From positions 1 through 64,000 of IMG/VR virus record IMGVR_UViG_3300032287_003808: a stretch of DNA of 64,000 nt. One strand, written 5' to 3'. Shown here in pieces: positions 21,862 through 51,098 of the stretch. Source of the stretch: a virus. The notes below the pieces were generated by a model. It was given only the letters and a program-made list of their open reading frames with translations, was not told where the DNA came from and searched no databases. Numbering within the stretch: the first letter of the stretch is position 1; each line of letters opens with the position of its first letter. Position numbers and translations under genes: made by a program.

Positions 21862-22563
21862 TCAACTATTTACTATATCAGTAAATACAATAGTATTCCC
21901 TCTCATTAAGAAATTACCAGGAGTAGGGTCTAAAACTCCAGCATCAATGATATCTTCCATATCTAAAGCAGAATTTAAATCATTTTTTATACCTACTAAT
22001 TGATTTAAAAAATCATATTTTTTAATTGTAGGTTCTACTGATGGGTCTAACTCTAATAATACTTTTTCTATTTCATTAATTTCTATTAAATTTTCTAAGA
22101 AATTATCTAAATAAGGTGCTTTTTTATTGTAGTTAGGGAATAACATTAAAAATAAATTAAATAAGTCTTTAGGTAATTCATTTAAATATTCTAACACAAT
22201 TACTCCAACATACTCACTTTGTTCAGATTCTTCTTCAAAATGAATTATATTATATATTTTAGGAAGATGTTTATAATTTGTTCCTAATAAATCTTCAGCA
22301 GTGTATACGTCATAAATGTTTTTAGTAATTTTAATAACTTTATTAGAATTTCCTATTTTAAAAACTTTTCCATTTGCTCCACTTCCTAAAAAAGAGTGTT
22401 CTTCATCATATTTGGTTATAGGAGTTAAATCTCTTTTATATTGGTTAAACAATTTAATAAAATCATCCCACGTTTCTGCTTTATCAAATTCAGACTGGGT
22501 AAATTCATTTAATATATTGAGAATTTCTTCTTTTATTAATGTTTTTAAATGAGATTTTTTCAT
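21862..22563 (-). CDS. protein-kinase-like (APH/RIO-type fold) protein with N-terminal LIKEE leader
   Basis: Gly loop 'LGSGANGKVF', 'VIKIT', hinge 'IVLEYL', catalytic-type 'DPTPGN', 'FTDI'; likely start MKKSHLK at 22563 just after late motif. Confidence 0.65.
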   Translation of the reverse strand: MKKSHLKTLIKEEILNILNEFTQSEFDKAETWDDFIKLFNQYKRDLTPITKYDEEHSFLGSGANGKVFKIGNSNKVIKITKNIYDVYTAEDLLGTNYKHLPKIYNIIHFEEESEQSEYVGVIVLEYLNELPKDLFNLFLMLFPNYNKKAPYLDNFLENLIEINEIEKVLLELDPSVEPTIKKYDFLNQLVGIKNDLNSALDMEDIIDAGVLDPTPGNFLMRGNTIVFTDIVNS

Positions 22564-22582
22564 GTTTTTGTTATACATATAC

Positions 22583-22608
22583 AAAAAAAGCCTGGCTTTC
22601 GCCAGGCT
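22583..22608 (-). terminator. intrinsic terminator after major capsid gene
   Basis: AGCCTGGC-GAAA-GCCAGGCT then T run on minus strand. Confidence 0.88.
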
Positions 22609-22631
22609 CTTTCAAACTATGATTCTATTGA

Positions 22632-24365
22632 TTAGATCAAGTTAGTGTTACTTACAAACACACGACCATAGAATTCAGGACGGATCATTTTCTTCGCGTA
22701 GCGAGTCAATAAACCTTTTCTTGGTGTAAATGTGTCTGGATCGTACACAAGTGGAGTCATAATTAATGGAATGTATGGGCTAAATGTAGCACCTGTTTCC
22801 AAGAATTGTGAACCTCTATAACCCATCAAGATAGTACCTTCAGTCATGTATGGATTCTTGTAAACTGTAAAGCGGTTGTTTAATTGACCTGCTTTTTGGA
22901 TACCGAATGCATAAGACATTTTAGTAGCTTCACCATCTGAAGTTGAAGCAAATCCTGGGATTGATTCAAGGATAGTTGCAACTGTAGGAGAAACAACCAT
23001 AAAGTTAGCACCTCCACGTAGAGTTTTCTGGTGGATTTTGTTACTTACTTTTTGGAATTTCGTTCCTAAAGTTTGGAACCATTGACCTTGTGTATTGTAG
23101 AATGCAAGATCTGTATAACCAGTTCCTGTAGAATTCAATTGTTGGTTGTTTTCAACATTCCAATATTCATCCCATGCAGAAGCATCTTGGATCAACATAT
23201 CAAGTATTTCAAGGTCGATTTCCAACGCGATATACTCAGACATGATTGATGTTAATTCAGCTTCAGCATCAAGAGCTTGATATGCATTCAAATCTTGAGC
23301 GAATTCAGGTGTCCATTGAGCATTCAACTTACGAGTTTTAGCAACAATAGCTTCTGATTTCAACTGAACGTTGATTTGTGGAATAGCTAATTGGTCTGCA
23401 GCAGAAGACTCAGCATTTGGATAACCACCACGAGCACCAGACTGATCTTCGAAATCACCACGGTAATTGTCAGTAGGTTGAACGTTATAGTACAAGAAGT
23501 TAGCAGTTGCATCTGAACCAGTTCCTGGGATACCATCACTAGCTGTAGATCCTGAAGCAGAACCAGAGAAAATAAATGTGATTGTGCTTGTACCGTTTGT
23601 AGTAGTAAACTCAGGTAACAAACGAGCATAAATTTGAGTTCCTGGGACACCAGAACCAGCTGAACCTGAAGCTGCTACGAATGCACGAACACCTTTAAAG
23701 TCAGGATTAGTAATGTTAGTACCAGCACCTACAAAATAAGTAACTTTTGAGTACTCATTTGCAGCAACAGATGCAGACAATTCAGCAGCGTATTTAACAT
23801 CAGCCCAAGACGCTTTTGAACGAGATACTTGAACAGAAGCTGAGAATTGGTTGATAGAGTATGCGAATCGACCAGCACCATACAAACCGTTAGATGCGTT
23901 AGCAGCAACTCCTGGGTTAGTGTTACCATACAAAGATGAAGTAGCACCATATACATCACCACCAGGTCCGAAAGGTCCAACAGGAGCAGTTTTTCCTTGA
24001 TCGTATTGGAAATCTAAGAAGAATACAAGTCCAGAAGGCAAGTTCATAGGTTGTACAGAAACGAATTCTTTAGTAGAAATCGAACCGAACACCTTACGTA
24101 CCAATGGAAGAGCAACTCCAGCCCATTGTGCACCTGTACCTACTGTAAAAGTACCACCTGTACCAGCAGTGTTAGTAGAAGATTCAACAACCAATTGTTT
24201 AGCTTGGTTTTCAAGGATTAAAGCCATGTTGTTTTTCTCAACTTCGCCACCTAATCCTTCTAGTAGGCCTGTTTTAGCCCATTTAGCAGCAATTCGAGCT
24301 GCATCACTCTGCATGTTTTTCCAACCGCTAGCAGAGCTTTCTAAAAGTGAATTAATGTTTGACAT
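22632..24365 (-). CDS. major capsid protein (T4 gp23-like)
   Basis: 'VSVQPMNLPSGLVFFLDF', 'AKTRKLNAQWTPEFAQDLNAY', 'PYIPL', 'FTPRKGLLTRY'; likely start MSNINSLLE at 24365 (577 aa). Confidence 0.95.
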   Translation of the reverse strand: MSNINSLLESSASGWKNMQSDAARIAAKWAKTGLLEGLGGEVEKNNMALILENQAKQLVVESSTNTAGTGGTFTVGTGAQWAGVALPLVRKVFGSISTKEFVSVQPMNLPSGLVFFLDFQYDQGKTAPVGPFGPGGDVYGATSSLYGNTNPGVAANASNGLYGAGRFAYSINQFSASVQVSRSKASWADVKYAAELSASVAANEYSKVTYFVGAGTNITNPDFKGVRAFVAASGSAGSGVPGTQIYARLLPEFTTTNGTSTITFIFSGSASGSTASDGIPGTGSDATANFLYYNVQPTDNYRGDFEDQSGARGGYPNAESSAADQLAIPQINVQLKSEAIVAKTRKLNAQWTPEFAQDLNAYQALDAEAELTSIMSEYIALEIDLEILDMLIQDASAWDEYWNVENNQQLNSTGTGYTDLAFYNTQGQWFQTLGTKFQKVSNKIHQKTLRGGANFMVVSPTVATILESIPGFASTSDGEATKMSYAFGIQKAGQLNNRFTVYKNPYMTEGTILMGYRGSQFLETGATFSPYIPLIMTPLVYDPDTFTPRKGLLTRYAKKMIRPEFYGRVFVSNTNLI

Positions 24366-24393
24366 TGTTTTTGTTTTTGTTTTTAGTTTAAAA

Positions 24394-25674
24394 TTAAATA
24401 ATTCCTGCCAATTTTTGGAATCTAGCGACCATGTCATTTGATTCTACGATTGGCTGTTTTTTAGGCGCATTTAATACTTTTGATGCACTTCCTAAGTTTT
24501 CGTTTAATTTAGTAGCTTTAACTTTCAATCCCTCGTTTAAAGTTTCAAATACTAATTTAACTTCTCCAACTGTGGTAGCTTTATCAAAAGAACTAAGTAC
24601 TTTAACCTTTTGATTTTCATTTAAGTTTTTAGATTTAAAAATTTTGTTTGTGTAAAGCAATTTAGCATTTAACAAATTGATTTCATTTAAATCTTGACGA
24701 AGAGTTTCAATAGTAGCATAAGCTTCATCTAACTCAGACTTAAGACTTTCAAATGTAGAAGGCATGTTTGGTCCTTTTATATTATCTGAAGTAATGTATG
24801 TTACTTTACCATCTTTAGCTGAGAATCCTCCTAAACCAGCGTCTTCTTTAGCTTGTTTGGTTAAGTCTGCGATTTCAGCATCACTAGGAGAGTAAGAATC
24901 ATCTAATTTTCCTAATCGTTTAAAAGCAATAATTTTGTTTGGAAGTTCTTTCATAAGATCTTCTACAGCTCCAGATGAACCTAATCTATTAACAGCAGCT
25001 ACAACTTTGTTCATTAAATTTTTAACAAAATCTCCTGCTTTTGTTCCTTCTTCTAGATCTTCTTCTAAATCTTCTTCGTAGTTCATACCTTCGGTTTCCA
25101 TCGCATCGATTTCTCGTAAAAGTTCTTCTAAATTGATTTCTTCATCATCGGACATTTCTATTTCTTCTCTGTCTCCTGTTTCATCTTCTTCAGCATCTAC
25201 TTCTACTTCTCCATTTTTCATTAGATCCATAAGTACATCTTCGATCATTTTCTTTAGATCTTCATCAGTGAAATCTTCAAGGTCAATAGGTTCACCTTCT
25301 TCTTCATCCTCTTCAAACTTTTCAACTTCAACTTCTTCGTCTTCGTTTTCGTCTTCGTTTAGTTCTCCGAATAATTCATTTAAATCCAAATCTTCTTCCA
25401 TAGATCCCTCATCTCCGTATTCGTCTTCATCTAATGCTTTTGACATATCTGAAAATCCTACGTCTCCTTCAGCTCTTGATTTTCCAAATCCGACTTCTTC
25501 TAAGTCTTCTTTTTCATCCTCATCAGCCATTTCTTGGAGTTTAAGAGAAATCATAGATTTCAATTGTGGAGCAAATGACTCTTCTAGAACTGCTTTAGCA
25601 TTTGCGATTGCAGTTTCCTTAACGGTCTTAGCATCAGCAATTGCTTCTTTAAGCAAATTTCTGTTTGTTGACAT
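24394..25674 (-). CDS. prohead core scaffold protein (T4 gp22-like)
   Basis: 426 aa highly acidic, coiled-coil, between protease and capsid genes; many L-x-E sites; C-terminal 'RFQKLAGI'. Confidence 0.75.
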   Translation of the reverse strand: MSTNRNLLKEAIADAKTVKETAIANAKAVLEESFAPQLKSMISLKLQEMADEDEKEDLEEVGFGKSRAEGDVGFSDMSKALDEDEYGDEGSMEEDLDLNELFGELNEDENEDEEVEVEKFEEDEEEGEPIDLEDFTDEDLKKMIEDVLMDLMKNGEVEVDAEEDETGDREEIEMSDDEEINLEELLREIDAMETEGMNYEEDLEEDLEEGTKAGDFVKNLMNKVVAAVNRLGSSGAVEDLMKELPNKIIAFKRLGKLDDSYSPSDAEIADLTKQAKEDAGLGGFSAKDGKVTYITSDNIKGPNMPSTFESLKSELDEAYATIETLRQDLNEINLLNAKLLYTNKIFKSKNLNENQKVKVLSSFDKATTVGEVKLVFETLNEGLKVKATKLNENLGSASKVLNAPKKQPIVESNDMVARFQKLAGII

Positions 25675-25868: not shown

Positions 25869-26507
25869 TTACCAAATAGGACAAGATCCTTGTGAACAAA
25901 GTATTTCAGTTATAATAGAATTAACTTTGACATATGGGTTAGAATTAGTATGATTTAAACCTTCATGTAACCCTATACCCATTGAGTTTCCTTTAGATAT
26001 TGGAGTCATCCATGAATCTGGGTTTGAAGGTGTTGATACAAAGTCCCAACATAGTAAATCAAAGTCAGGTTGTACTACTAATAATCCTTTTTCTTCTTGT
26101 AATGATCCCATCCCACGAGAAGAAACACCAACCATAATGCCACTATCAAGTAATGCTTTTAGAATATTTCCTGATGGTGTTGGTAAGATTTCTATTTTAC
26201 CCATAACGTTATCTCCATCCCACCATATATCAGTGATATTATGTGATACATTTTTTAGGTTAATTATAGAAGATTCAGGGTGATCTAGTTCACCACATGC
26301 TCTGTTTTCTTTAACAGAAACCATGTACTTTTCAATCTCTCGTTCCCAAAGATCTTTTTTGTAATATCTACCATTACCGTTTTTAATTTCCGCGGTTGCT
26401 AAAATACCCTCAACTAAAGGATTACCTTTAGGGGATGTTTTGCCCTCTGTTAAAGATACAACAGATGGTTTGAATAATTGGGTCTCTATTAATACTTGTT
26501 TACTCAT
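25869..26507 (-). CDS. prohead core protease (T4 gp21-like)
   Basis: 'KNGNGRYY', 'GELDHP', 'VSHNI', 'GVSSRGMGS', 'WDFVSTPS'. Confidence 0.93.
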   Translation of the reverse strand: MSKQVLIETQLFKPSVVSLTEGKTSPKGNPLVEGILATAEIKNGNGRYYKKDLWEREIEKYMVSVKENRACGELDHPESSIINLKNVSHNITDIWWDGDNVMGKIEILPTPSGNILKALLDSGIMVGVSSRGMGSLQEEKGLLVVQPDFDLLCWDFVSTPSNPDSWMTPISKGNSMGIGLHEGLNHTNSNPYVKVNSIITEILCSQGSCPIW

Positions 26508-28099
26508 TATCTTAAACGGCTTTCTATATCGCTACGCATACGAGGATTAAACTTAACTAAAATATCATCTATATCTAAACCTCCATTATACATTTCTTGA
26601 GCTTGATTTACAGCGTCTTCAAGCCCCATATCAATACCTTCTTCACCTACTTCATCAATTACTTCTTTTTTCTTACCTTTACCTTTATGCATCATCTTTT
26701 CAATTTTAGATTTTGCTTTTTCTAAGGCTTTGATATCTTTAGATATTTCTTTAACTTTTTTAGCATCAGTAAGATCTTTCATATCTTCATCTTCATCTAA
26801 ACGATTAATTTGAGATTGTTTTTTATCAATTAATGCTTGTACTTTATCTAATTTATTTTGAAGCGCTTCATGTTCTGCTTCTTTATTGATTTGAGCAAGA
26901 TCTTTTTCAATACCTTCAGTAAGTGCTGATGCTGAGTTTTTAATAGTAATGCTGCCTAATACTTCTCTTTTTTCTCCTGTGTCTCTATCAGTTTTTGTAA
27001 GTGTAGTAGTACTTATTGGGGTTAAACTAGTATAATATTTATCAGCACCAATAGACTTAACTACAGCTTTTCTAATTTCTCTTAAAGCATCTTTACTTTC
27101 TTGGCTTATCCCTCCTATAACTCTACTTAAAGAAGATTTCATTGATTCTTTTTCTCTAGAGGATCGACCACGCTCTTGACTTTCTAAGTCTTTGTATAAT
27201 AAAGCTGAAATTTTGATGTTTCCGTCATCTCCTAATATGATGTGAGGTTTACCCCAACTTAAAGAATTTTCACCTTCAGTATTAATACGATTAACATCTA
27301 AAGCATTTAATGTAATAGTTTCTTTAATAAATCTTCTTCCGCCGCCTCCAGATTTAGGAGGTCTGATGTTAATCATTTCTTCTATTTCTTCAGAAATAAT
27401 TTCACGGATTATTTTTCGTAATTTATCCTCTTCATTTAACGGTTGAACTGATTCATTTAAATCACCATATCCAGATGCTTTATATTTACCTTTAGCTTCT
27501 TTTGGAGTACCTAAACCAGGATGTTCAGTTGTATATCCTAAACCTTTAACACCAAATTGACCTTCTTTTGTATAGTAAATTGGGTCTTTAGTTAAATTTT
27601 TAAGTACTATATCTTTTAATTGCTGCATTGTTTTATCAGCATTCTTAGGGTCTTTTAATTCGGTGTAATAACCCATCATGATTTGATCAAAAATCAAGTT
27701 ATCAGGATTAGTTTTTACCATCGATTCATATCCTTTATCTAAGTCATCTTTAACTTGTTTAGAAGGTTTTTTTAACTCAGCTTTTTCAGTTTCCTCTTGA
27801 GATTTAACTTTTTTCTCTTTAACTTCTTTAGCTTTAATTTGAGGATCTTTTGCTTCTTCTAAGAATTTTTCGAAAGCAAGTTCGTATGACTCTTTTTTAG
27901 ATTCAATTTTATTAATAGGAGTAATACCTACTATATTCTCATTAATAACTCCTTTTTGCTTAAGGATATTTGTTGCTTCATCAAATGTAGCAGCATTACG
28001 AACATAGTTAGGGAATTGACGTTTAGCATCATTTAAGAACATACCTTTATGTCCTTTTCCTTCTTTAATTAATTTGTATTGTTCATTAAGGGTTTTCAT
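26507..28099 (-). CDS. hypothetical head-associated/core protein
   Basis: 530 aa, K/E-rich, between portal and protease; contains 'KLRKIIREIISEEIEE' and several L/I-N-E sites. Confidence 0.5.
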   Translation of the reverse strand: MKTLNEQYKLIKEGKGHKGMFLNDAKRQFPNYVRNAATFDEATNILKQKGVINENIVGITPINKIESKKESYELAFEKFLEEAKDPQIKAKEVKEKKVKSQEETEKAELKKPSKQVKDDLDKGYESMVKTNPDNLIFDQIMMGYYTELKDPKNADKTMQQLKDIVLKNLTKDPIYYTKEGQFGVKGLGYTTEHPGLGTPKEAKGKYKASGYGDLNESVQPLNEEDKLRKIIREIISEEIEEMINIRPPKSGGGGRRFIKETITLNALDVNRINTEGENSLSWGKPHIILGDDGNIKISALLYKDLESQERGRSSREKESMKSSLSRVIGGISQESKDALREIRKAVVKSIGADKYYTSLTPISTTTLTKTDRDTGEKREVLGSITIKNSASALTEGIEKDLAQINKEAEHEALQNKLDKVQALIDKKQSQINRLDEDEDMKDLTDAKKVKEISKDIKALEKAKSKIEKMMHKGKGKKKEVIDEVGEEGIDMGLEDAVNQAQEMYNGGLDIDDILVKFNPRMRSDIESRLR

Positions 28100-28562
28100 T
28101 CTCTTCTCCTTTTAATAATTTTTTTATGTCTTGTATGTATTCTAAAATTAAATCAGTTGATATAATTATTTCATTCGACCCTGGGTTTTCTTGGTAGAAT
28201 TCTACGGTCTGGTTTTTAGCGTTTGAAATCATAGGTGAAAGTGAGTTTAATTCATTTTCTATATCTTCAAAAGCTTTTAAACGTTCTTGTTGAAATGCAT
28301 CTGTTGTATCTTCTTCAAATAATTTTTTTACTTCTAAACCAGATCCTTTAATTTTGTTAGGTACTGCTTTCCATCCTAATTTATAATAGTATGGTTTTTT
28401 TACTCCTTTTTCATTAGTACCTTTTTTAAAAGAATATTTAGTAGCATCTTGAGCACCTTCACCAGGGGTAAAGGCACCTTCACCACCACCAGCTCCTGTT
28501 GATGATTCTTCTTTTAACTTTTTAATAGTTTCTCTTACAATATTTTTTATTCTATCAGACAT
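28086..28562 (-). CDS. hypothetical head-associated protein with LIKEE-type leader
   Basis: 158 aa; starts 'MSDRIKNIVRETIKKLKEE'. Confidence 0.5.
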   Translation of the reverse strand: MSDRIKNIVRETIKKLKEESSTGAGGGEGAFTPGEGAQDATKYSFKKGTNEKGVKKPYYYKLGWKAVPNKIKGSGLEVKKLFEEDTTDAFQQERLKAFEDIENELNSLSPMISNAKNQTVEFYQENPGSNEIIISTDLILEYIQDIKKLLKGEENENP

Positions 28563-41623: not shown

Positions 41624-42079
41624 TTATTTTACGTCGTATTCTACTTTATCTACTACTAATTTATTTATAGTATTAATATTTACCATTCTATACCCTTTAA
41701 TTTTAGCATCAAATACCGGAATTAAACCTTTTTCGTCTGGGTTGTATGGTAATGTTCCTCCTTTAAGGTATACTTTAACACCTAAACGAGCATTCATTAC
41801 TCTATTAGTACCATCTTTTTTAGTAAAAGATACTGTAAAATATTTACCTTTAGTACTTTTAATTATTTTAGCTGCTTCTTGTTTAGAAATAGTTCTATTA
41901 GGAAACTCAGGATTGTCCTCTGGTTTTTCTTGAGGTTGTTCTGGTTCTTCTTTTTGTTCAGGCTCTTGAGGTTGTTCTTCTTCCGGAGTTTCTTCTGGGT
42001 TTTCTTCCTCAGATGCAGGTATTTCTTCTGCTTCTAGAAGAATTTTTTTAATTATATCTTTTAAATTTAGGGAATTCAT
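41624..42079 (-). CDS. leader + acidic linker + SH3/WYL-like beta-barrel protein
   Basis: 'LKDIIKKILLE', E/P/Q linker, then 'FTVSFTKKDGTNRVMNA...VFDAKIKGYRMVN'. Confidence 0.55.
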   Translation of the reverse strand: MNSLNLKDIIKKILLEAEEIPASEEENPEETPEEEQPQEPEQKEEPEQPQEKPEDNPEFPNRTISKQEAAKIIKSTKGKYFTVSFTKKDGTNRVMNARLGVKVYLKGGTLPYNPDEKGLIPVFDAKIKGYRMVNINTINKLVVDKVEYDVK

Positions 42080-42669
42080 TATGTTAATGCTTCAAAATCA
42101 TCATCTATATCTAAAAGAAACTCATCGGTTATCCCTTGATTATTTGAAAGAATAAGTTTTACATCATTCCCATACATTCCTTTATCTTTAACCTCAACCC
42201 TATCTCCTCTTTTAAATAAACCAATATCACTACTTAAAGTAAAAACATCACCTACATTAATTTGGCTTGTCATAATTTCTTCTAATTGAGTCTCTTCAAG
42301 AATATCATCTAATATTTCGTTGATTTCTTTTTTTAATTCATTCATATTATTAGTAAGTTTTTCAACCCCTCTAACACCTGTTATTCTATATCCTGTATTT
42401 ATATAATTACCTTCTGTGTCTGTATTGAATAGGTCGTCTAGATAGTTTTGGATAGATGTGTTCCCTCCATATTTGTTAATATCGTCTTGGGTGATAGAAA
42501 TTGTAGTGTCACCTAAATCTTTTTCACCTTGATTATCTCGAGCTCTATAATATACTTTATATTCTGTTCCTAATTCAAGGTCTTCTAAAAATGATGGTTC
42601 ATTTTCATTTTCATGTAAAGCACGTTTAAGTTCTTCTTTTACTAATTCTCTTAAGCCGTTTAATTTCAT
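42079..42669 (-). CDS. hypothetical protein with two LIKEE-type segments
   Basis: 'LRELVKEELKRALHE' at N-terminus and internal 'LKKEINEILDDILEE'. Confidence 0.55.
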   Translation of the reverse strand: MKLNGLRELVKEELKRALHENENEPSFLEDLELGTEYKVYYRARDNQGEKDLGDTTISITQDDINKYGGNTSIQNYLDDLFNTDTEGNYINTGYRITGVRGVEKLTNNMNELKKEINEILDDILEETQLEEIMTSQINVGDVFTLSSDIGLFKRGDRVEVKDKGMYGNDVKLILSNNQGITDEFLLDIDDDFEALT

Positions 42670-42926
42670 AATTTATATATTTTCAATTTTAAATTTCCAT
42701 CACCTTTAATAACACGATGCCATTGATGGCGTTCTATAAATATTGGTTGGTTTAATGAGGTTGGTAACTCGTTATCAAGTTGTATCTTCCAATTTGTTTC
42801 TCCAAGTATTTCTATTGTTCTATTTTCATCATCGCGGTGCCACATAAGTTCAATTGGATCTATATTTTCGTTAAACTCACGAATAATATATTTGTCTGTA
42901 ACTTCTATGTCGGTGTATGGGGTCAT
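42666..42926 (-). CDS. small cupin-like protein
   Basis: 'ELMWHRDDENR...WKIQLDNELP...WHRVIKG' with His residues placed as in cupins. Confidence 0.55.
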   Translation of the reverse strand: MTPYTDIEVTDKYIIREFNENIDPIELMWHRDDENRTIEILGETNWKIQLDNELPTSLNQPIFIERHQWHRVIKGDGNLKLKIYKL

Positions 42927-43168
42927 TCACCTTTAGGTAAAAACCAGTTTGAACACCATTTTGAAGGGTCTTTAATTTGATTCCCTTCATTATCTATTAA
43001 TTCAGCTGTTCCCATATGTTCTTGATAATATGAATTACCACACATATGTTTTTCGTTTTCTACATAGTAGAATTTACAAACATGACATCCAAACCCCACA
43101 GGTGAATACATGTAAGCGGGTGATTTTTCTGATTGGGTAGTTTCTTTAAGTAGGTCTATTAATTTCAT
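42923..43168 (-). CDS. small Cys-rich metal-binding protein (HiPIP-like spacing)
   Basis: 'CHVCKFY..C..KWCSNW'; starts 'MKLIDLLKE'. Confidence 0.45.
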   Translation of the reverse strand: MKLIDLLKETTQSEKSPAYMYSPVGFGCHVCKFYYVENEKHMCGNSYYQEHMGTAELIDNEGNQIKDPSKWCSNWFLPKGE

Positions 43169-43557
43169 TTTGTTTTACCCCATTTTTTACCTTTACCAGG
43201 TGTTTTACATTGAGCAGGTGTAGGACGACATGAAGGATATTTGGCTCGTTTTTCACCTTCTTTTCTACCACATGCTTTACATTTACCATCTCGGCAAGTA
43301 TTACAATCTACCCAACCACCTTCTTTTCCTGGTGTACCTTGGCGTTTAAACCATTTATAGAGTGATTCGTCTTCTTGGATTATTTCTTGGATTATTTCTT
43401 TTAATCCTTTCCATATATCACCTTGTCGGCATCTTTCTATATTGCCTGAGCGGTAAGCAGATGATTTTGGTATTTTACGTCTAGCAATACGTAAGCACCT
43501 ATCAGCTTTCTTTTTTTCTAAGAGAACTTCTTTAATTAAATCTCTTAACCTAGACAT
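43165..43557 (-). CDS. basic Cys-rich hypothetical protein with LIKEE-type leader
   Basis: 'MSRLRDLIKEVLLE', internal 'LKEIIQEIIQEDE', 'WVDCNTC..CKACGR..YPSCRP'. Confidence 0.55.
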   Translation of the reverse strand: MSRLRDLIKEVLLEKKKADRCLRIARRKIPKSSAYRSGNIERCRQGDIWKGLKEIIQEIIQEDESLYKWFKRQGTPGKEGGWVDCNTCRDGKCKACGRKEGEKRAKYPSCRPTPAQCKTPGKGKKWGKTK

Positions 43558-43910
43558 TTTAATTTATAAAGTGTTGATTGGGTTAATTCAATCACAGTAT
43601 CAATTTGATTTTGAATGTAAGAATCTGGGATATCTTGGCGTAATGTTTCTGTAATTTTATACAATGATTCAAAGTATGTTACTACTTGGTTTTTATCTGT
43701 GTAATTTATTAAAGGGAAACTAACGTATTCTTTGATAATTCCGTATTTACCTTGGTAAGATTCTACTAAACCATCTATTAAATCTACAATTCCATCATAA
43801 TAATCATTTAGTGCTTTATGTTCAGCAAATGATAAGGTTTGTAAATGAAACACATGAGCTTGTGTTCTTGAATGCATTAAATAAGATACTAATTTTGAGC
43901 AATTTTCCAT
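43545..43910 (-). CDS. ferritin/Dps-like four-helix protein
   Basis: 'HVFHLQT.SFAEHKALNDYYD...DGLVESYQGKYG...LYKL' Dps/ferritin-type metal-ligand pattern. Confidence 0.7.
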   Translation of the reverse strand: MENCSKLVSYLMHSRTQAHVFHLQTLSFAEHKALNDYYDGIVDLIDGLVESYQGKYGIIKEYVSFPLINYTDKNQVVTYFESLYKITETLRQDIPDSYIQNQIDTVIELTQSTLYKLKCLG

Positions 43911-43931
43911 TTTGTTTTATTTTTGTTTTTA

Positions 43932-44798
43932 TCACCAGAATCCTGAGAATGATGATTTTAGTCCAAGTAATTTAGCGTATCGAGGTAAGCGGCAACTCCA
44001 GTATGATGCTTTTGTTTTGTCTGTTTTTTGGGCACATTTATGACGTGCAGCAAATGCTCTACGTGCTTCTGGGTTGTTTATTTTAGCAGACATTCCTGCT
44101 TGCCCGAATGATACTTTTTTGATTCCACCTCCAGGTTTTCTTACATAAACATAAAATTTCTTAGAACCACCACGTTTTGGTTTTCCTATAGGAGGATTTT
44201 TTTTCTTTTTATCAGCTTCATTTAGATTTAAGAGATCTTCATATTCATGATATACACCATAATCTCTTAATATATACCTAATTTCATCTATGTCTATGTA
44301 CTCTTGACCTAATTCAGCAACTAGTTCATTATAAAAGGGATATTTGTCATGGCCTTTTTGTTGGGCTCTATCTAAAATTTTCATTAAAGGAATTTCATTA
44401 GCTCTAACAGATAAATCTATTCCTTCTTCTAACATAGGTAAATCTAATTCTACTAATTTACCTTCGTACATCCCATAATTACCTAAATCAGTTTCAAGTA
44501 AAATTTCTTTATCATCATCATTTACATGAATAATTTCACGTAAATATAAAGCACGAGCTTCCGCCCATAAATCAAGGAAAGATTTAGAGCCATAACGGAA
44601 TGTATTTTCAGTAAGTGGTAATTTATTATCCACGTGATATCGCAGATTATCCGATAATATATCTTTTTTAACTAAACTTTCATTTAGTACTACACCAGAA
44701 TTACCTACATTCTCACAACTATGACATCCACAACTGCAAGAATCTTTTTTAGGTGGAGTAGATAATACTTCTTTTATGAGTTTATGTAAACGTTCCAT
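43932..44798 (-). CDS. hypothetical protein with leader and basic C-terminal domain
   Basis: likely start MERLHKLIKEVL at 44798; 'CSCGCHSC'; C-terminal 'KKFYVYV..KKVSFG..ARRAFAARHKC..ASYWSC'. Confidence 0.6.
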   Translation of the reverse strand: MERLHKLIKEVLSTPPKKDSCSCGCHSCENVGNSGVVLNESLVKKDILSDNLRYHVDNKLPLTENTFRYGSKSFLDLWAEARALYLREIIHVNDDDKEILLETDLGNYGMYEGKLVELDLPMLEEGIDLSVRANEIPLMKILDRAQQKGHDKYPFYNELVAELGQEYIDIDEIRYILRDYGVYHEYEDLLNLNEADKKKKNPPIGKPKRGGSKKFYVYVRKPGGGIKKVSFGQAGMSAKINNPEARRAFAARHKCAQKTDKTKASYWSCRLPRYAKLLGLKSSFSGFW

Positions 44799-44809
44799 GA
44801 TAATAAATA

Positions 44810-45907
44810 TCAAGGAATAAAATAGAAATTACTTTTTAATCCTTTTTCCTTATCCCAAAACATAGCTTCTGCAGATCTTTTAGCACCTATATATCCTTTT
44901 TTATGATGCCATGAATCTGTAGCTGATAGTGAGCTCATATATCGTATGATAACGCCTTGGTATTCTTCTGTTGATTTGTATTTAATCTCTTTTTTTCTAT
45001 GTTCATGTCCTAAATGAAACTCTCTGAATTTAGATAGAGCCCAATCGGTTGGGTTTTCATGAGCCATTATAATAGGTAAATCAGTAATTTTTTCTTCATT
45101 ACCATGTGTGTATCCTATTAGCACATTACCATGCTTATAATACTTTCTAGGACTAGGTGAATTATCAACATTCACATTAGGATTATTATAGAACCATCCC
45201 TCTAATGAATCTCCTAGATAAAAATTTCTTTCATAATCATGATTTCCAGGAACCATAACTACATCAACAGGAGCAATTTGAGATAATTTATTTATATTAT
45301 CTACTATTAATTGTCTTCCGGTACGGAATGTTTTTTGCCATCTAGCATCTTCTTCTTGTGGAGTACCTCTAGTAGTACTATTAAATGGATGAGATCTATC
45401 TGAATTGAAGAAATCGTTTCCTATTGGGAGTACGATTCGTTCTATGTTTTTATTTTGGCATTCTAAAATAAAATCATCAATACAGCTGTTGAATAAATCA
45501 CTAGCTATATTTAAGTTATAATTATGTCCTGTTTCTTCATCCCACGCTATTTTCCCTAAATGAAGGTCAAATATATTAAGTTCTAAAAGTAAAGGTGATT
45601 TATCAACTCTAGGTTTATAAGATATTTTATCTACTTTAGGAGATAATTTTTTAATATCTTCAATAAAATCTTCTCTAATTAAATTAAAAACAGAAGTGTT
45701 TTTATTTTTTAGCCAAATTTTTACTTGAAACAAAGGTGTAGTGACAATTTTATTATCTGGTCCTTTTGCTCCTACTTCCCAAGTATTTAAGACTTGTTTT
45801 TCAATTTCCCACTCATCTAAAGATATGTTATACACATTTAAAAGATCATCAGCGGTAATTATTCTATTAACAATTTCTGATGTTAAAACTTTGGTATTTT
45901 GTTCCAT
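44810..45907 (-). CDS. calcineurin-like metallophosphoesterase
   Basis: 'DLHLG', 'GNDFFN', 'PGNHD', 'THG', 'GHEH' motifs. Confidence 0.8.
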   Translation of the reverse strand: MEQNTKVLTSEIVNRIITADDLLNVYNISLDEWEIEKQVLNTWEVGAKGPDNKIVTTPLFQVKIWLKNKNTSVFNLIREDFIEDIKKLSPKVDKISYKPRVDKSPLLLELNIFDLHLGKIAWDEETGHNYNLNIASDLFNSCIDDFILECQNKNIERIVLPIGNDFFNSDRSHPFNSTTRGTPQEEDARWQKTFRTGRQLIVDNINKLSQIAPVDVVMVPGNHDYERNFYLGDSLEGWFYNNPNVNVDNSPSPRKYYKHGNVLIGYTHGNEEKITDLPIIMAHENPTDWALSKFREFHLGHEHRKKEIKYKSTEEYQGVIIRYMSSLSATDSWHHKKGYIGAKRSAEAMFWDKEKGLKSNFYFIP

Positions 45908-45925
45908 TAAGTATATTTTAAAACT

Positions 45926-45957
45926 TAAAAATAAAAAAGATTTTATTAGAAGCCAAA
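45926..45957 (-). promoter_or_regulatory. Bacteroidota sigma-A-like promoter
   Basis: TTTG (45957-45954) - 20 nt - TATTTTTA (45933-45926). Confidence 0.55.
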
Positions 45958-45961
45958 CAAT

Positions 45962-46855
45962 TTATTCAGCTGCCTTTATATCTAAATCTGGGGATAATGA
46001 GGTGTATATGTTTTTTATAGTACGAGTCTTTTTAAGTTGGCCACTAGCTACATAAGGTCTGCCAAAATCTACTTCAACCCATTCAACAACTCCCCTACTA
46101 TCAGGTTCTCCTGATCTTGTGCCTGCAGATGCTGCGGCTACTACTTTTCCGGTTCCATAATCCTTATGAGTAAAATCTGATCCTACTCTATATGACGCTT
46201 TTATTCTATAAGGTAATGATTCTGGATCTATTAATGTTTTAGTAGTTTTTATCTCAGGAGTTATAAGAAATTCATAATCAGAGGCTGTAGTTATTCTAAC
46301 TGGTTTTTCAATTTTATTTCTTTCTTGGTGGCTAGCCATGTTAGATTCTATAGTAGCACTATCATCATCATCTAATAGTAATAATGTACGTAGCGTATTA
46401 TCAGATATTACAGCTACATATGAAGTTCCTATATTTATTTTTTTAGTTTCTTTAGTAGTATATTCTGTTTTTAATTTAAGAGGAATTCTACGATTTTCAT
46501 AAACCAAAATAGGTTTCATTAATTTATATCCTATTTTATTAGGGATAGAAGCAGGAAATTCTTTAAGATTTAATAATCTAGATGTTCTTGATATAAGTTC
46601 ATTTTGTATTTGTTCTATAACTTCTTGTTTAGATGTAGGATAATCTTTAGGAAAATTAGTTATATCTAATATTGTTCCTCTTTCTTTTACTCTATCTTGC
46701 CAATGGTTCTGCCAAGTTTCTAATTCATTTAGGTCTATACCTACTTTTTTAAGCTCATTCTCTAAAATTAAAATATCCTTAGGATCACTAATATCAGGGT
46801 ATCCTTTAGAAAACTTATATGATATATTATAAAGAAATTGTTCTAAAACGTCCAT
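45962..46855 (-). CDS. hypothetical protein with C-terminal Tudor-like (UvrD/PcrA CTD-like) segment
   Basis: 'VGSDFTHKDYGTGKVV...VEVDFG'. Confidence 0.5.
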   Translation of the reverse strand: MDVLEQFLYNISYKFSKGYPDISDPKDILILENELKKVGIDLNELETWQNHWQDRVKERGTILDITNFPKDYPTSKQEVIEQIQNELISRTSRLLNLKEFPASIPNKIGYKLMKPILVYENRRIPLKLKTEYTTKETKKINIGTSYVAVISDNTLRTLLLLDDDDSATIESNMASHQERNKIEKPVRITTASDYEFLITPEIKTTKTLIDPESLPYRIKASYRVGSDFTHKDYGTGKVVAAASAGTRSGEPDSRGVVEWVEVDFGRPYVASGQLKKTRTIKNIYTSLSPDLDIKAAE

Positions 46856-47562
46856 TATTTACTTTCAAGATTTTTCAATTGAGTCATAATTTTTGTGAGT
46901 AATTGATCATCATTAGATCTAATTAAACCTATCATAGCGTTACTCATAGCTTTTACTTGTTGCATACTAAGATTTTTACCGGTTTTTACAGCATTATATG
47001 CCATTTGAAAATCATTAATATCTACTCCTGGGAGCTGTTGGATTAATGGTTTAAGGTTAGCTGCTCCTTTAAGTTCAGTTTCTGAAATGATATTTTTAAT
47101 TTCTTCTTTAATTAGTTTTTTTAAGGCTTCGTTTTTCATTTTTTTAGATTTATTATAAGTATTAGATTCTTGGATGCCAGTTACTGTTCTACCTTCAAAT
47201 TTTTCTTTTAAATAATTAACTAATTTTTGATTCATATTAAAATCATCTTCTAATGGTTTAGTATCAGGTTCATTGTCTATAATATTAGCTGTGATTTTAA
47301 GAAAAGCATTTTCTACAGTATCATCTACTATAGCTGAGAATTCATCGTCAACGTCAATTTTATCTAGCCAAGTTTTGGTTTTTACAGTGTCAGGTTTACC
47401 AAAGAAAGCTTTAATAACGCCTAATGTATTTTTAGCTGCATCCGCGTAAGGTATCAGCCCAGTAATAATATCTACAGTTGTATTACCTACTTTTTCATTT
47501 CTTTGCTGTTTAGTAATAGCTTGAATTGCTTTTTTTAAATCACCATAAGTATTTAATTCCAT
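46855..47562 (-). CDS. hypothetical protein with internal LIKEE segment
   Basis: internal 'MKNEALKKLIKEEIKNIISE'. Confidence 0.55.
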   Translation of the reverse strand: MELNTYGDLKKAIQAITKQQRNEKVGNTTVDIITGLIPYADAAKNTLGVIKAFFGKPDTVKTKTWLDKIDVDDEFSAIVDDTVENAFLKITANIIDNEPDTKPLEDDFNMNQKLVNYLKEKFEGRTVTGIQESNTYNKSKKMKNEALKKLIKEEIKNIISETELKGAANLKPLIQQLPGVDINDFQMAYNAVKTGKNLSMQQVKAMSNAMIGLIRSNDDQLLTKIMTQLKNLESK

Positions 47563-47573
47563 AATTTACATCA

Positions 47574-48065
47574 TTATGCTTCTGCTGGCACTTCTGCCGC
47601 CGGTGGGGTTTCTTCTTCTGGTGGGGTTTCTCCAGGTGGTGTTTCAGTTGGAGGTAAAGCCCCCATTGCTAAATCTTCGTCTGTAGGGATATCACTCTCA
47701 GCTTTGGCTCCGTATCTTAAAATTCGAGAGATAGCTTCTGCTGCTCTTTCTTCTTCAGGTAAATTTAAAAGATAATATTTTTTACCTTCTACTTGAGCTA
47801 TCCAACTACGTTTACCATAGATAAGATAAAACTCTTGCCCATTTTTTAAATTAATACGAAATGTGGTAGGACGAGGAGCTACCCAATCTATAGAAGACAT
47901 AAATTTATTAAACTCATCAGTTAATAAATCTACAATAATATTTTTTAGTTCAGGGAATTTAGTCAATTCATCATACTCAACAGCTATGGTTTCTACTTTC
48001 TCCTGTCTCTTAATCGCTTGGGGAGCAAGTCGTTTAATACGTGCTATGAGTTCTTCTTTAGTCAT
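47574..48065 (-). CDS. hypothetical protein with acidic ETPP-repeat tail
   Basis: 163 aa; C-terminal 'PPTETPPGETPPEEETPP'. Confidence 0.55.
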   Translation of the reverse strand: MTKEELIARIKRLAPQAIKRQEKVETIAVEYDELTKFPELKNIIVDLLTDEFNKFMSSIDWVAPRPTTFRINLKNGQEFYLIYGKRSWIAQVEGKKYYLLNLPEEERAAEAISRILRYGAKAESDIPTDEDLAMGALPPTETPPGETPPEEETPPAAEVPAEA

Positions 48066-48802
48066 TATTTTTTATCTTTAAGATGTTGCATTACACTTTC
48101 AGCTAATTTTTTAGCTATGGCATACATTTGAGGATCATCTTCTTTAAATTTTCCAGATTTTTTAAGAGCTTTAACTATTTTTTCTTCTGGTTTAGTGAGT
48201 TTACCTTCATCGATGACATCTTCTTGAGACATAACATCTGTCATGGCATCAATTTGAGGTTCTTTTAATTCAAATTCAAGGTAATTTTTTGCACTACCTA
48301 ACATAGTACACGCTTTAGTAACTTTAGATTGCCACCAAGCTGGTAAGTCTACTTCTTGATCAACACCATCAAACTTATCTAGCATTTTATATAACGCCAT
48401 TGCATTTTGGGCAATTTTATATAACTCACCTTTAATCATATGTGGTTCATCATCTTCATGACCTAAATCAAGATCTTCTTCTAGTTCAATTCCTCGACCT
48501 TTTAAAATGTCTGCTTTAGTTACTTTACCATCTCCTGTTAAATCAGGGAAAGATTTTTTCTTTTCATCTAATGGTTTAGATAAAACATCTTGTACTAATT
48601 TTTTTAATCGATCATTTTCCATTTCTTCTGACGTTGGTTCAGGTGTATATTGTTTAGCAATTTTTAAAGCTCTTTTTTTCATAAAAGCTTCTGCTTTCAT
48701 TCCATACTTTTTTACAAAGTTTCTTTTATTCTTTTTCATCCCGAAAAGAACTTGCTCCATCTTATATTTTTGGTCAGGAGTAAGTTCGTTTTCAGAAATC
48801 AT
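48065..48802 (-). CDS. hypothetical protein with EF-hand/dockerin-like loop
   Basis: 'DLTGDGKVTKAD' 12-residue Ca-loop pattern; 'LPAWWQSKVTKA'; internal 'RLKKLVQDVL'. Confidence 0.55.
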   Translation of the reverse strand: MISENELTPDQKYKMEQVLFGMKKNKRNFVKKYGMKAEAFMKKRALKIAKQYTPEPTSEEMENDRLKKLVQDVLSKPLDEKKKSFPDLTGDGKVTKADILKGRGIELEEDLDLGHEDDEPHMIKGELYKIAQNAMALYKMLDKFDGVDQEVDLPAWWQSKVTKACTMLGSAKNYLEFELKEPQIDAMTDVMSQEDVIDEGKLTKPEEKIVKALKKSGKFKEDDPQMYAIAKKLAESVMQHLKDKK

Positions 48803-48813
48803 AATACAATAAA

Positions 48814-48984
48814 TTAAGCTTTATCTTCAGCAGAGGATACTTTCTTAAATTCACCAGCTAATTTTTTTAATTCGCTAGCGGCTTTACGAGCACGTCCATG
48901 AGCTGCTTTAGATGTTTTTTCGTTTTCTGTTTTTACTGTCTCTAACAATGCCTCCATTGTTGTAATTAATTCTTGTGTGTTCAT
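48814..48984 (-). CDS. histone H1-like Hc1-family protein (56 aa, absent from ORF track)
   Basis: translated by hand: MNTQELITTMEALLETVKTENEKTSKAAHGRARKAASELKKLAGEFKKVSSAEDKA*; 'KAA..RARKA..EL.KL..EF.KVS' matches Bacteroidota Hc1-like proteins. Confidence 0.75.
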   Translation of the reverse strand: MNTQELITTMEALLETVKTENEKTSKAAHGRARKAASELKKLAGEFKKVSSAEDKA

Positions 48985-49008
48985 AGATTTTATTTATTAT
49001 AGATTTAA

Positions 49009-49452
49009 TTATTGCTCACCTCCACCAATATATTCACTAACAAAGAATTTTAGTGTGTTTCCTATTTGTGTTGTAAGCTTTTCGTTATTCATTCCTTTAG
49101 CTATTTTAAGGGCACTCATTAAATGATCCATAACTTCACTCTCAGTACCTTCCATATTAGCCGCTACATCTTCTAAACCGCTATCAGTTGAAATATCTCC
49201 TACAGGCATTTCATCTTCAGCAGGTATATCTTCTATTTCAGTATCAGTTACTTCAACATCTTCTACTTCTTCGTCTTTTTTCTTTTTAGCTTCTTCAAGA
49301 TCTTTTTCTTCAGAAAGTTCAGCTAAAACCATTTCACGAATTTTAGATCGGATGTCATTTTCTGAAAGGTTTTCTTTAGCTATTACAGGGTTTAAATTCT
49401 CAAGTGCTTTACTTTCAGTTAAGAATTTTTTTAGGTCAAAATTATCTGCCAT
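49009..49452 (-). CDS. acidic hypothetical protein with LIKEE-type segment
   Basis: 'FDLKKFLTE', 'IRSKIREMVLAELSEE'; late motif upstream. Confidence 0.55.
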   Translation of the reverse strand: MADNFDLKKFLTESKALENLNPVIAKENLSENDIRSKIREMVLAELSEEKDLEEAKKKKDEEVEDVEVTDTEIEDIPAEDEMPVGDISTDSGLEDVAANMEGTESEVMDHLMSALKIAKGMNNEKLTTQIGNTLKFFVSEYIGGGEQ

Positions 49453-49473
49453 TTTATTTTATTATAAATATTA

Positions 49474-50100
49474 TTATTTCTTGTTGGTTGTGTATAAATA
49501 TTCGGAGAGTAATGTTCCTATGACTCCTACTTTTTGTCTAATATAAATCCATTCATCTTTTGTAATATGATGAGGATTTTGGAATGATACAGCTAATACA
49601 CCTATTAAATGATTATCTAAACTATGAAGCCCAACCATACAAACTGATTTTGTATTGAATTGAGTTGTTAAATATTCTAAACCATAAGTATCTTCTTCTT
49701 CATTTACATCTTCTATTGATAATTCATTATCTTTGTATACTTTAGAAAGTACTCTAGGAAATAAAGATACAGGGATATTTTGAAATGTATTTTGAATATT
49801 AGGTGTTTCAGGAGTACATTTTTCATAGAAAATAGAAAATTTCTGGATTGAGCGGCCTGTTGGGTAGAAATGCCCTCCATTATGGAATTGTGCAATCCAA
49901 ATACGATCACATTCTAATTCCCCCATTACTTGTTCTAATTGGTTATCAATTAATGTAGAAGTTTCAAGAGCATCACGCATCTGGGTTGATGGGTCTTTTT
50001 TCTCCATTTTTAATTTAACCCAATTTACCATAATAGGTCCAACAACAGCTGTGATTAATGCTACTGTTATAGTTGTAATTACAGTTAAGGTTTCCATCAT
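49474..50100 (-). CDS. single-TM GAF-like protein, candidate T4 T-type holin
   Basis: N-terminal TM (TVITTITVALITAVVGPIMV) then 'CDRIWIAQFHNGG...LIGVLAVSF' GAF-like pattern; same architecture as T4 holin T. Confidence 0.5.
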   Translation of the reverse strand: MMETLTVITTITVALITAVVGPIMVNWVKLKMEKKDPSTQMRDALETSTLIDNQLEQVMGELECDRIWIAQFHNGGHFYPTGRSIQKFSIFYEKCTPETPNIQNTFQNIPVSLFPRVLSKVYKDNELSIEDVNEEEDTYGLEYLTTQFNTKSVCMVGLHSLDNHLIGVLAVSFQNPHHITKDEWIYIRQKVGVIGTLLSEYLYTTNKK

Positions 50101-50666
50101 TTTTTAAGGCTTTCTAAATATTTAATTACTTCATCTAATGATTCTTCTGCACGTTCTTGGTCTATAGAACCGAACCATCTTTCTACTTCACCACTTTCCG
50201 TAACTGTTCCTTGGTTACTTTCTTTAAGTTTTTCTTGAAAGAAAGCTTTATATTCTTTTATCGTTTGATCTATTTCTAAATTAAAAGTATGATCAGTATA
50301 TGTTTGCCATTCACCTTTTATTTTCATTTGGGTTTCTGTAGTTGCTCTGCAATCTAGACACTCACCATATGATTTATAATAGAATGGATCTAATTGTTTA
50401 TCCATAACTTGTTTACAAGCTGGGCAGAATAGGGGTACTGAAACTTTTTTGAATTTATCTAATTTAGTGATATTTTGTTTGATTCCATCTTTGATGGTCC
50501 AAGTACGGCCATCTTCTTGCCAGACGTCACCTTCATCATAATCTTTAGATTCTTTAGTATAACCCACACCATGAGTTATTTTTTCTCCACTTTTGCCTTT
50601 TACAAGGTTTCTAACACGTTGTATGTCTTTTTCAGTGAATTGTTTTTTTAGGACATTTTCTTTCAT
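50097..50666 (-). CDS. hypothetical protein with Zn-finger
   Basis: 'EGDVWQEDGRTWTIKDG', 'CPAC...CLDC'. Confidence 0.55.
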   Translation of the reverse strand: MKENVLKKQFTEKDIQRVRNLVKGKSGEKITHGVGYTKESKDYDEGDVWQEDGRTWTIKDGIKQNITKLDKFKKVSVPLFCPACKQVMDKQLDPFYYKSYGECLDCRATTETQMKIKGEWQTYTDHTFNLEIDQTIKEYKAFFQEKLKESNQGTVTESGEVERWFGSIDQERAEESLDEVIKYLESLKK

Positions 50667-50669
50667 AAC

Positions 50670-51098
50670 TTATTTTTTAATCTTATTTGTCCACCCTCGG
50701 AACATTATATTTCCCTTTTTATAGGCTTCTTCTTCAATTTGTTTTAAATAATTATCTTCATTGATATCTTTAGTTTTAATCCTACCACCTCCAATTCTTC
50801 CATCACATTTTTGTTCATGGTGAATCATTTCATGAGCGAATGAACGCATCACATCTTTAGGATGACGGTTTAAAGTATAAAGAGCTATTAAATTACTATC
50901 AGGACGATAATAAGCTGTTTTGCCAAAAAAATCTTCAGCATTTGAAGTATCATTATCTATAAATTTAACTTTAGGTAAAGGAAGAATATTCATTTCTTCT
51001 TCTAGCATATACTCAATGAGAGATTTAAATAACGGCTTATAATCAAATTCATCAGATTTAGCCGTTATTTCATTTAATAAATGAGTTAATTTTATCAT
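50670..51098 (-). CDS. zincin-like metallopeptidase with short leader
   Basis: 'RSFAHEMIHHEQ...IEEEAY' HExxH+E; likely start MIKLTHLLNE at 51098. Confidence 0.65.
   Translation of the reverse strand: MIKLTHLLNEITAKSDEFDYKPLFKSLIEYMLEEEMNILPLPKVKFIDNDTSNAEDFFGKTAYYRPDSNLIALYTLNRHPKDVMRSFAHEMIHHEQKCDGRIGGGRIKTKDINEDNYLKQIEEEAYKKGNIMFRGWTNKIKK

Follow-up and report, generated by a model that had tools for sequence, protein, structure and literature searches.

The first 64 kb of an uncultured phage genome (IMG/VR record IMGVR_UViG_3300032287_003808, positions 1 to 64,000, hereafter the window; whole genome 131,434 bp, G+C 31.8%) encode a set of otherwise unrelated proteins that begin with the same kind of short amphipathic helix ending in a hydrophobic-x-Glu site. 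The phage is of the T4 type with a host probably among aquatic Flavobacteria, and comparison of the sequences suggests that the shared helix (the class A leader) is probably a capsid-targeting propeptide of the T4 kind, though in a richer form with several classes. The leader is a real motif that is portable between proteins, is under selection at the protein level, is restricted to predicted late genes, occurs together with a prohead protease gene and resembles the propeptides of T4. An earlier note, made from the sequence of the window, had proposed a leader for loading a packaged cargo set; the leader itself, its portability, its late context, the S77 protease and the T4 parallels all stand, and from them we infer the packaging.

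All 13 peptides quoted in that note were present in the translations at the places given, and the true starts at 22563, 44798 and 51098, which lie within longer TTG/ATG frames, are supported by the spacing of the late promoters (leader genes, which lie on the minus strand, are named here by their upper coordinate; Table 1). The core of class A was defined as [LIVMF]xx[LIVM][LIVM][KRQ][ED]. There are 30 matches to this pattern in the 187 minus-strand open reading frames (ORFs), with 10 of them (in 9 proteins) beginning in the first 14 residues, where about 6.5% would be expected; one of the ten, in the early gene 118527-119471, is probably a false positive. When the first 28 residues of 184 proteins were compared all against all without any pattern, six pairs scored at least 40; internal segments and shuffled N-termini each gave none, and seven of the eight members of the largest N-terminal cluster were leader proteins. 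A long-form profile, for which 22 long leaders from relatives and no sequence of this genome were used, matched the three 20-residue leaders each from the Met and also an internal copy in 46855-47562 (scores in Table 1), whereas 100 composition-preserving shuffles of the proteome gave a mean of 0.02 matches of at least 10 bits against these four, with a top score of 10.7. The top four matches of a short-form profile from relatives were 43557, 44798, 51098 and 43168 (5.2 bits), three of them beginning at the Met, with shuffled proteomes giving a mean maximum of 3.8 and a highest score of 8.4. By the test for chance that the note had itself suggested, profiles against shuffled controls, the motif is far above expectation, with three long and four short N-terminal leaders recovered.

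Because the peptides are present, enriched, clustered without bias and found by profiles from relatives only, the leader set is regarded as real, but it is mixed and not the one uniform leader first described. A 20-residue form (22563, 34600, 42669) can be told from a 9-14-residue form (43168, 43557, 44798, 51098) and from weaker cases (28562, 42079), and the original inventory had missed further classes, including one that copies the C-terminal tail of the scaffold (see below). On their own 28562, 42079 and 66125 (the last outside the window) are near noise, their support coming from conserved orthologues.

The N-terminal position of the leader is replicated in relatives. In the whole genome of the nearest named relative, Flavobacterium phage vB_FspM_immuto (capsid protein 55% identical; hereafter immuto), 6 of 30 core matches lie at position 9 or before; the leader proteins of immuto start at 102294, 103366, 111184, 112261, 113188, 123355 and 81525. 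In 80 capsid-gene loci of relatives, 35 of 222 core matches fall in the first 15 residues against 5% expected, a count including TerL and a 141-aa family that are regarded as false positives. In 80 cargo-block loci fetched with the DUF5872-like protein the figure was 225 of 362 against 7% expected, with the DUF5872-like family adding to the count because these loci were chosen through that leader protein. The 278 leader-bearing proteins among 2,837 pooled ORFs formed 72 body clusters (BLAST E <=1e-4). Cleaning by eye via a prefix list took out TerL, the 141-aa family, tail-fibre-like proteins, N-termini of the nucleotide-binding kind and spurious ORFs of low complexity. The 57 clusters that remained, with 165 distinct leader/body representatives, bear out the claim of a portable, N-terminally anchored leader for about 57 unrelated protein families across the clade.

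The Met stands exactly 3 or 5 residues ahead of the core in 124 of the 165 representatives. With each body cluster weighted as one, positions that the pattern leaves free are conserved, namely Met at -5 (69%) or -3 (28%), Lys at -4, Glu at +7, Ile/Leu at +8, Leu at +12 and Glu at +14, the Glu reaching 97% at core +6, where the pattern fixes it, and 47% at +14, where it does not. The terminal Glu of the leader lies at residue 9-10 or 20 and information content drops to background past the Glu at core +6 or +14; likewise, in an alignment of 25 long leaders, conservation extends up to Glu20 with none beyond. The conserved Leu, Ile, Arg and Lys positions are encoded by 3-5 synonymous or alternative codons, indicating that selection acts on the peptide.

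One body may carry different leaders. The kinase-fold body, which has the long leader here, is headed in a homologue of 73% identity by a third leader class of 13 residues ending Leu-Thr-Glu; two further homologues have short leaders and several have none, and the junction Glu ahead of the body is retained. In four relatives the N-terminus ahead of the WYL_2/SH3-like body (42079) is of four different kinds (long-form, short-form and others). The body of 49009-49452 follows an internal leader-like segment in this genome, and its counterpart in locus L091 follows an N-terminal long leader. The 13-residue class also heads 49009-49452, which over its first 19 residues shares 63% identity with a 333-aa immuto protein (117631-118632) that is unrelated elsewhere. 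Among the leader proteins of the window mutual similarity is mainly confined to the leaders, the exception being the low-complexity acidic regions of 33668-34600 and 41624-42079, which match each other. A tblastn search of cultured phages with a 23-residue leader gave no match because the query was too short.

Two classes of upstream motif were distinguished. The early class, TTTCGTATATTAAA... followed by AAAGGTT, stands ahead of about 60 genes, small ones and those for replication. The other, TAT[TG]TAT[ATC]A, which we infer to be the late promoter, occurs 13-30 nt upstream of the sheath, tube, fibre, baseplate, portal and PhoH genes. The T4 late promoter TATAAATA was tried as the late signal and rejected, its 15 coding-strand occurrences being mostly not ahead of genes. 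The late motif lies directly before seven leader genes (22563, 34600, 44798, 51098, 49452, 66125 and 128004), 13-22 nt upstream, several of which are single late islands amid early genes, with the promoter of 34600 (34613-34622) lying within the end of an early gene. When each gene was crudely assigned to its nearest upstream motif, every one of the 12 leader genes (10 of class A and 2 of class B) fell in a predicted late unit, compared with 60 of the 175 remaining genes (Fisher 5.8e-6); primase and a nuclease count as 'late' here only for want of an early motif ahead of them. In keeping with the original description the leader is confined to predicted late units, being absent from the primase-to-DenV neighbours under the other promoter class, and in relatives 15 of 25 leader genes have a late motif upstream (by eye). 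The late gene block of the window also includes membrane protein and exonuclease genes without the leader. Two further proteins of the block without the leader are a 56-aa Hc1 histone-like protein (48814-48984) and a DUF5856 protein (43545-43910; PHROG: starvation-inducible regulator).

The head module follows the T4 gene order, and its S77 protease, at 36% identity to T4 gp21, keeps the HP and GVSSRG motifs in the alignment. The cleavage consensus of gp21 is L/I-x-E, and for T4 a leader with Asp in place of the Glu is reported to be packaged yet left untrimmed. Hydrophobic-x-Glu sites occur in the capsid protein at residues 7-9, 34-36, 50-52 and 59-61 (hand count), with residues 74-127 aligning weakly to residues 84-137 of T4 gp23, the region just past the gp23 propeptide. 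In T4, the head-internal proteins carry N-terminal propeptides of 10-20 residues that confer affinity for the core and are removed by gp21, which cuts 'C-terminal to a glutamyl residue' ('LIE-9'), the cargo being diverse except for its leader (available text of PMC9026906, PMC5694885, PMC3012670). The leaders described here are like the capsid-targeting sequence (CTS) of T4 IPII and IPIII (also IPI and Alt) in being N-terminal peptides of 10-20 residues with a hydrophobic-x-Glu end on unrelated bodies, and in both phages there is a gp21-type protease, a scaffold core and a placing of cargo genes by a denV-type gene. In the T4 record ipII and ipIII have a common 10-residue leader, the first ten residues of gp24 fit the core pattern, a segment of gp67 has the same Leu-Ile-Lys-Glu-Glu core and ends Leu-Ile-Glu, and the N-termini of gp21 and gp22 parallel those of the window protease and scaffold. 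These gp24, gp22, gp21 and gp67 peptides are on structural and core proteins and not on a large exchangeable cargo set as here, the likeness being one of motif type seen by eye. A DenV-like pyrimidine-dimer glycosylase gene (41039-41512) adjoins the cargo block at 41624-42079 as ipII and ipIII adjoin denV in T4, an adjacency that could be remnant synteny or coincidence.

Unlike the T4 CTS, the leaders here comprise at least 3-4 interchangeable classes in two lengths, with internal copies joining modules with mostly acidic bodies, and with many more putative cargo families (about 57 across the clade). In the giant phages phiKZ, 201phi2-1 and SPN3US many head-internal proteins, of the ejection and inner-body kinds, are cut after Glu by a gp21-related protease, with redundant propeptide sites (available text of PMC9026906, PMC5694885); unlike the one short portable leader here, their propeptides generally exceed 100 residues and have Ala/Ser/Gly at P3. 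The literature searched, supplements aside, held no account of such leaders in the phages studied here.

Three parts of the acidic scaffold bear on the origin of the leaders. An alignment of 43 scaffold sequences has invariant and near-invariant columns, including a conserved central leader-like helix that is near-invariant, and both this helix and the N-terminal 10 residues resemble the class A core (by eye). The C-terminal tail is conserved in 62 homologues (Leu-Ala-Gly in 57 by eye), occurring also in Microcystis phage Mel-JY01, and the tail followed by Thr-Glu is the N-terminal leader (class B) of two late genes outside the window, 119579-119884 and 127339-128004. Also outside the window a tail copy is internal in 120133-120870 and another forms the C-terminal end of 122969-123898 (309 aa), which itself starts with a short leader-like peptide, and the scaffold-tail leader with its Glu site is N-terminal in immuto and 4-5 other loci too. 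The T4 ipII/ipIII leader resembles the first nine residues of the T4 scaffold gp22 (T4 record). Taken together, the leader-scaffold resemblance here and in T4 suggests that leaders imitate scaffold segments, class A resembling the N-terminal peptide and central helix and class B copying the tail, such that the cargo would ride on the scaffold's own contacts. No co-variation by eye was seen between scaffold tails and class B leaders of the same genome. A complex prediction of the scaffold (43-row alignment) with a 40-residue long leader (25-row alignment), run without controls, scored 0.00 against a mark of 0.32, a value that speaks neither for nor against an interaction.

If the leader is a capsid-targeting propeptide, varied proteins would be made late in infection, each with a 9-20-residue amphipathic leader right behind the start Met, including a kinase-fold enzyme and HExxH peptidase-like, SH3/WYL-like, Cys-rich basic and Lys-rich proteins. 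The leader would draw its protein to the scaffolding core while the prohead assembles, with the gp21-type S77 protease then cutting behind the final Glu of its hydrophobic-x-Glu end. Internal leader copies would be cut likewise, freeing separate modules inside the head that would later be delivered along with the DNA.

Several observations weigh against this account. By eye, class A has nothing in common with the T4 ipII/ipIII leader except the terminal hydrophobic-x-Glu, with no significant similarity between them. An [LI]xE ending at residues 6-25 is found in 63 of 187 proteins and is unspecific, so that the NSLLE, NLLKE and VLIE sites pointed out earlier near the starts of the capsid, scaffold and protease are present but individually unspecific. 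The T4 internal proteins are basic, and here nine of the 12 predicted mature bodies are acidic (pI 4.1-5.6) and two are clearly basic. The peptidase body is leaderless in loci L132, L091, L127 and L153, as are several kinase-fold homologues. The core-like motif is also present where no head cargo is expected, on a 113-aa baseplate-module protein (65784-66125, outside the window), and the N-terminus of TerL resembles it, with an exact fit to the pattern in a cluster of 25 TerL proteins of relatives; the likeness of TerL may be spurious or may mark a shared docking helix. In the literature searched, supplements aside, there was no virion proteome for this clade.

The motif on TerL and on the baseplate-module protein would also be in keeping with the helix being an uncleaved functional module of late proteins, such as a coiled-coil or oligomerisation handle, a tag for a chaperonin or assembly factor, or a tag for another part of the virion such as the baseplate. 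The AlphaFold model, in which the leader is a free amphipathic helix, would fit this, and outside the window (124175-125821) the genome encodes a 548-aa protein with a GroEL-type chaperonin-like N-terminus, recognized by eye only. Such a module is nonetheless unlikely, since conservation ends exactly at the Glu, the lengths of 9-10 and 20 residues agree with T4 propeptides as reported in the available text of PMC5694885, the small core-position protein, the scaffold and the protease bear the same kind of peptide, and the leaders swap with a class that copies the scaffold tail. It has also to be considered that the leaders are propeptides removed by the protease that keep virion or assembly proteins inactive or soluble, with targeting by other parts. 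Enzymes such as the kinase and the peptidase could need masking and some bodies have leaderless homologues, but peptides of 9-20 residues can hardly inhibit each of more than 50 unrelated folds, and in T4 ten residues are enough for targeting (available text of PMC9026906), making masking a rather poor candidate.

Conservation at the level of DNA, with the leader being a recombination linker or the translation-initiation region of mobile late cassettes and the peptide having no role, is improbable. Late promoter, start codon and leader do move together on many cassettes, and AAA Lys codons right behind the ATG are typical of efficient starts; against this, several codons serve for the conserved residues, drift of the nucleotides leaves the amphipathic spacing and the final Glu in place, and internal copies distant from any start retain the motif. 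Chance likeness of Lys/Glu/Leu/Ile-rich N-termini in an AT-rich genome, which might be raised given that these residues each make up 7-8% of this proteome and that the weakest cases are near noise, is already refuted for the core set by the shuffles and by the replication of the N-terminal enrichment in immuto and 160 loci of relatives, leaving it a negligible prospect.

The propeptide reading can be extended, more tentatively and with the odds somewhat against the whole, to a modular capsid-address code in an abundant aquatic T4-type clade (IMG/VR holds more than 600 uncultured relatives), in which interchangeable leaders derived from or competing with the scaffold would load more than 50 protein families for injection, internal leaders would make polyproteins that are cut in the capsid, and mimicry of the scaffold would be general, T4 included. 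The classes of such a code may be the long and the short helix, the scaffold-tail copy, the 13-residue Leu-Thr-Glu class and perhaps a 45-residue module (see below), and its cargo may include a predicted catalytically intact minimal protein kinase and a metallopeptidase. Were the propeptide reading right, these phages would inject a large and fast-changing set of enzymes and DNA-binding proteins with the genome, and the cargo list could be read directly from sequence via the leader, allowing the systematic discovery of 'first-strike' proteins of environmental phages and providing portable tags to package foreign proteins in non-coli phages. The old T4 question of what the CTS binds would have a testable answer, namely that leaders imitate scaffold segments. 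With Flavobacterium phage immuto, which grows on Flavobacterium sp. LMO8, there is a cultured relative that makes experiments feasible.

Among the candidate cargo, the labelling of 21862-22563 as a kinase is supported at the level of fold, with no curated profile matching the protein directly; neither Pfam nor PHROG gave a kinase family and a PDB search by sequence gave no kinase, while one homologue exceeds the Pfam APH cut-off. An AlphaFold2 model (pLDDT 86, pTM 0.82) has a bilobal kinase fold with the hallmarks present (Gly-rich loop, beta-3 Lys, catalytic Asp...Asn and metal-binding Asp), and in an alignment of 23 homologues G62, K78, D212 and D229 are invariant and N217 is at least 90% conserved. 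The leader is modelled as a separate low-confidence helix at residues 3-18 (pLDDT 58-59 against at least 85 for the body). A Foldseek search of the PDB listed 48 matches (E about 1e-4, TM 0.23-0.39), all of them protein kinases or aminoglycoside phosphotransferases save perhaps one. Some homologues (P0124, P0127, P0128, P0131 and P0141) are giants of 1,200-2,400 aa with several kinase-like domains together with cytidylyltransferase, RNA-ligase, 2'-5' ligase and pyrophosphatase domains, and these may be cargo polyproteins of other phages.

Among the other long-leader proteins, 34600 has its leader kept by orthologues in 6 loci, and 42079-42669 combines an N-terminal module matching leader proteins of 89-94 aa with a C-terminal module that one relative has as a separate 74-aa short-leader gene and others as the C-terminal domain of portal-to-protease head-module core proteins. 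Of the short-leader proteins, the body of 43168 bears short leaders in 8 relatives and that of 44798 belongs to the largest leader-bearing body cluster (57 members). For the DUF5872-like protein, 100 of the 114 homologues in which the body motif was found, among the 120 closest in the database, have a 16-17-residue segment before the body; the Pfam DUF5872 match begins at residue 16 and is weak, below the Pfam cut-off. The SH3/WYL-like label given to 41624-42079 is supported by a Pfam WYL_2 match at residues 71-137. The peptidase-like label of 50670-51098 is based on an HExxH motif and weak Pfam matches below threshold, with the body being fused in other relatives behind a nucleotidyltransferase-like domain. 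Orthologues of 28562 in locus L010 and in immuto keep a leader ending Glu-Glu followed by a Ser/Thr/Gly stretch.

Of the internal copies, the one in 46855-47562 is 58% identical to the 22563 leader over 26 residues. In 48065-48802 a similar Glu-ending segment stands ahead of the conserved body in 8 of 11 relatives among the matches listed, and the modules flanking the internal segment of 26507-28099 differ among relatives. This 530-aa protein begins (28061-28099) with Met-Lys-Thr and has Ile-Lys-Glu by residue 13, a start that by eye is like the T4 ipII/ipIII leader and is kept in relatives. The protein encoded by 45962-46855 has a 45-residue N-terminal module common to at least 12 proteins of relatives whose remainders differ, BLAST matches spanning residues 1-47 only. 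In locus L117 the body behind this module bears a short class A leader, and the module may be another interchangeable address module.

Table 1. Leaders, head-module genes and promoter motifs in the window. Leader and segment coordinates were derived by hand from residue numbers, and internal segments may be one codon off.
Feature	Coordinates	Strand	Remarks
20-residue long-form leader, kinase-fold protein 21862-22563	22504-22563	-	27.2 bits; late motif 22570-22579
20-residue long-form leader, 310-aa Lys/Pro/Glu-rich protein 33668-34600	34541-34600	-	29.8 bits
20-residue long-form leader, 196-aa two-module protein 42079-42669	42610-42669	-	21.4 bits
9-residue short leader, 81-aa Cys-containing protein 42923-43168	43142-43168	-	top-four short-form match
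14-residue leader, basic Cys-rich DUF5872-like protein 43165-43557	43516-43557	-	top short-form match, 9.4 bits
Short leader, Cys-rich 288-aa protein 43932-44798	44769-44798	-	9.0 bits from Met; late promoter 44800-44809
10-residue short leader, HExxH metallopeptidase-like protein 50670-51098	51069-51098	-	6.6 bits from Met; late promoter 51100-51109
16-residue leader and acidic Pro/Glu linker, WYL_2/SH3-like protein 41624-42079	42032-42079	-	near noise alone
19-residue leader, small core-position protein 28086-28562	28506-28562	-	T4 gp67/gp68 position
Third leader class, 13 residues ending Leu-Thr-Glu, 49009-49452	49414-49452	-	late promoter 49461-49470
Internal long-leader copy with own Met, in 46855-47562	47080-47139	-	14.2 bits, residues 147-161
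Internal leader-like segment, 530-aa head-module protein 26507-28099	27377-27424	-	core pattern at residue 227
Internal leader-like segment with own Met, in 48065-48802	48563-48622	-	core pattern at residue 66
Internal leader-like segment in 49009-49452	49306-49353	-	downstream body has an N-terminal long leader in L091
Late gene block	41624-51113	-	six N-terminal and four internal leaders; early genes both sides; promoters 51100-51109, 49461-49470, 44800-44809
Scaffold N-terminal 10-residue peptide ending Leu-Lys-Glu	25645-25674	-	
Scaffold conserved central leader-like helix	about 25207-25260	-	43-sequence alignment, near-invariant
Scaffold conserved C-terminal tail	24397-24423	-	tails of 62 homologues
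Large terminase (TerL)	31375-32952	-	
gp20-type portal	29453-31351	-	
285-aa protein		-	head module, listed after portal and before 158-aa protein
158-aa small prohead-core-position protein	28086-28562	-	between portal and protease
530-aa head-module protein	26507-28099	-	
Prohead protease, T4 gp21 type	25869-26507	-	Pfam Peptidase_S77 E 1.1e-31; PHROG head maturation protease E 1.7e-62
Acidic scaffold, 426 aa	24394-25674	-	gene between protease and capsid genes
Major capsid protein, gp23 type, propeptide-like N-terminal region	22632-24365	-	Pfam Gp23 E 4e-74
Kinase-fold protein gene	21862-22563	-	directly downstream of capsid gene; PhoH next in listed order
Early-motif examples	35390-35446, 38386-38439		CGTATATT.AA and downstream AAAGGTT, before early genes
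Late-motif examples	3138-3147, 9464-9473, 21845-21854		

All plausible genes of the phage genome are on the minus strand. After immuto the next named relatives are Mel-JY01 and then Rhodothermus phage RM378, and a megablast search of 24 kb against cultured phages gave no match. Elsewhere in the window the tail/baseplate region has one ORF of 2,000 aa (55965-61967), and there are four tandem pairs of late structural genes (1375-3117/3173-5278, 5586-7700/7720-9453, 10593-11327/11327-12061 and 17697-18707/18735-20573) that look like paralogues because of their similar N-termini.

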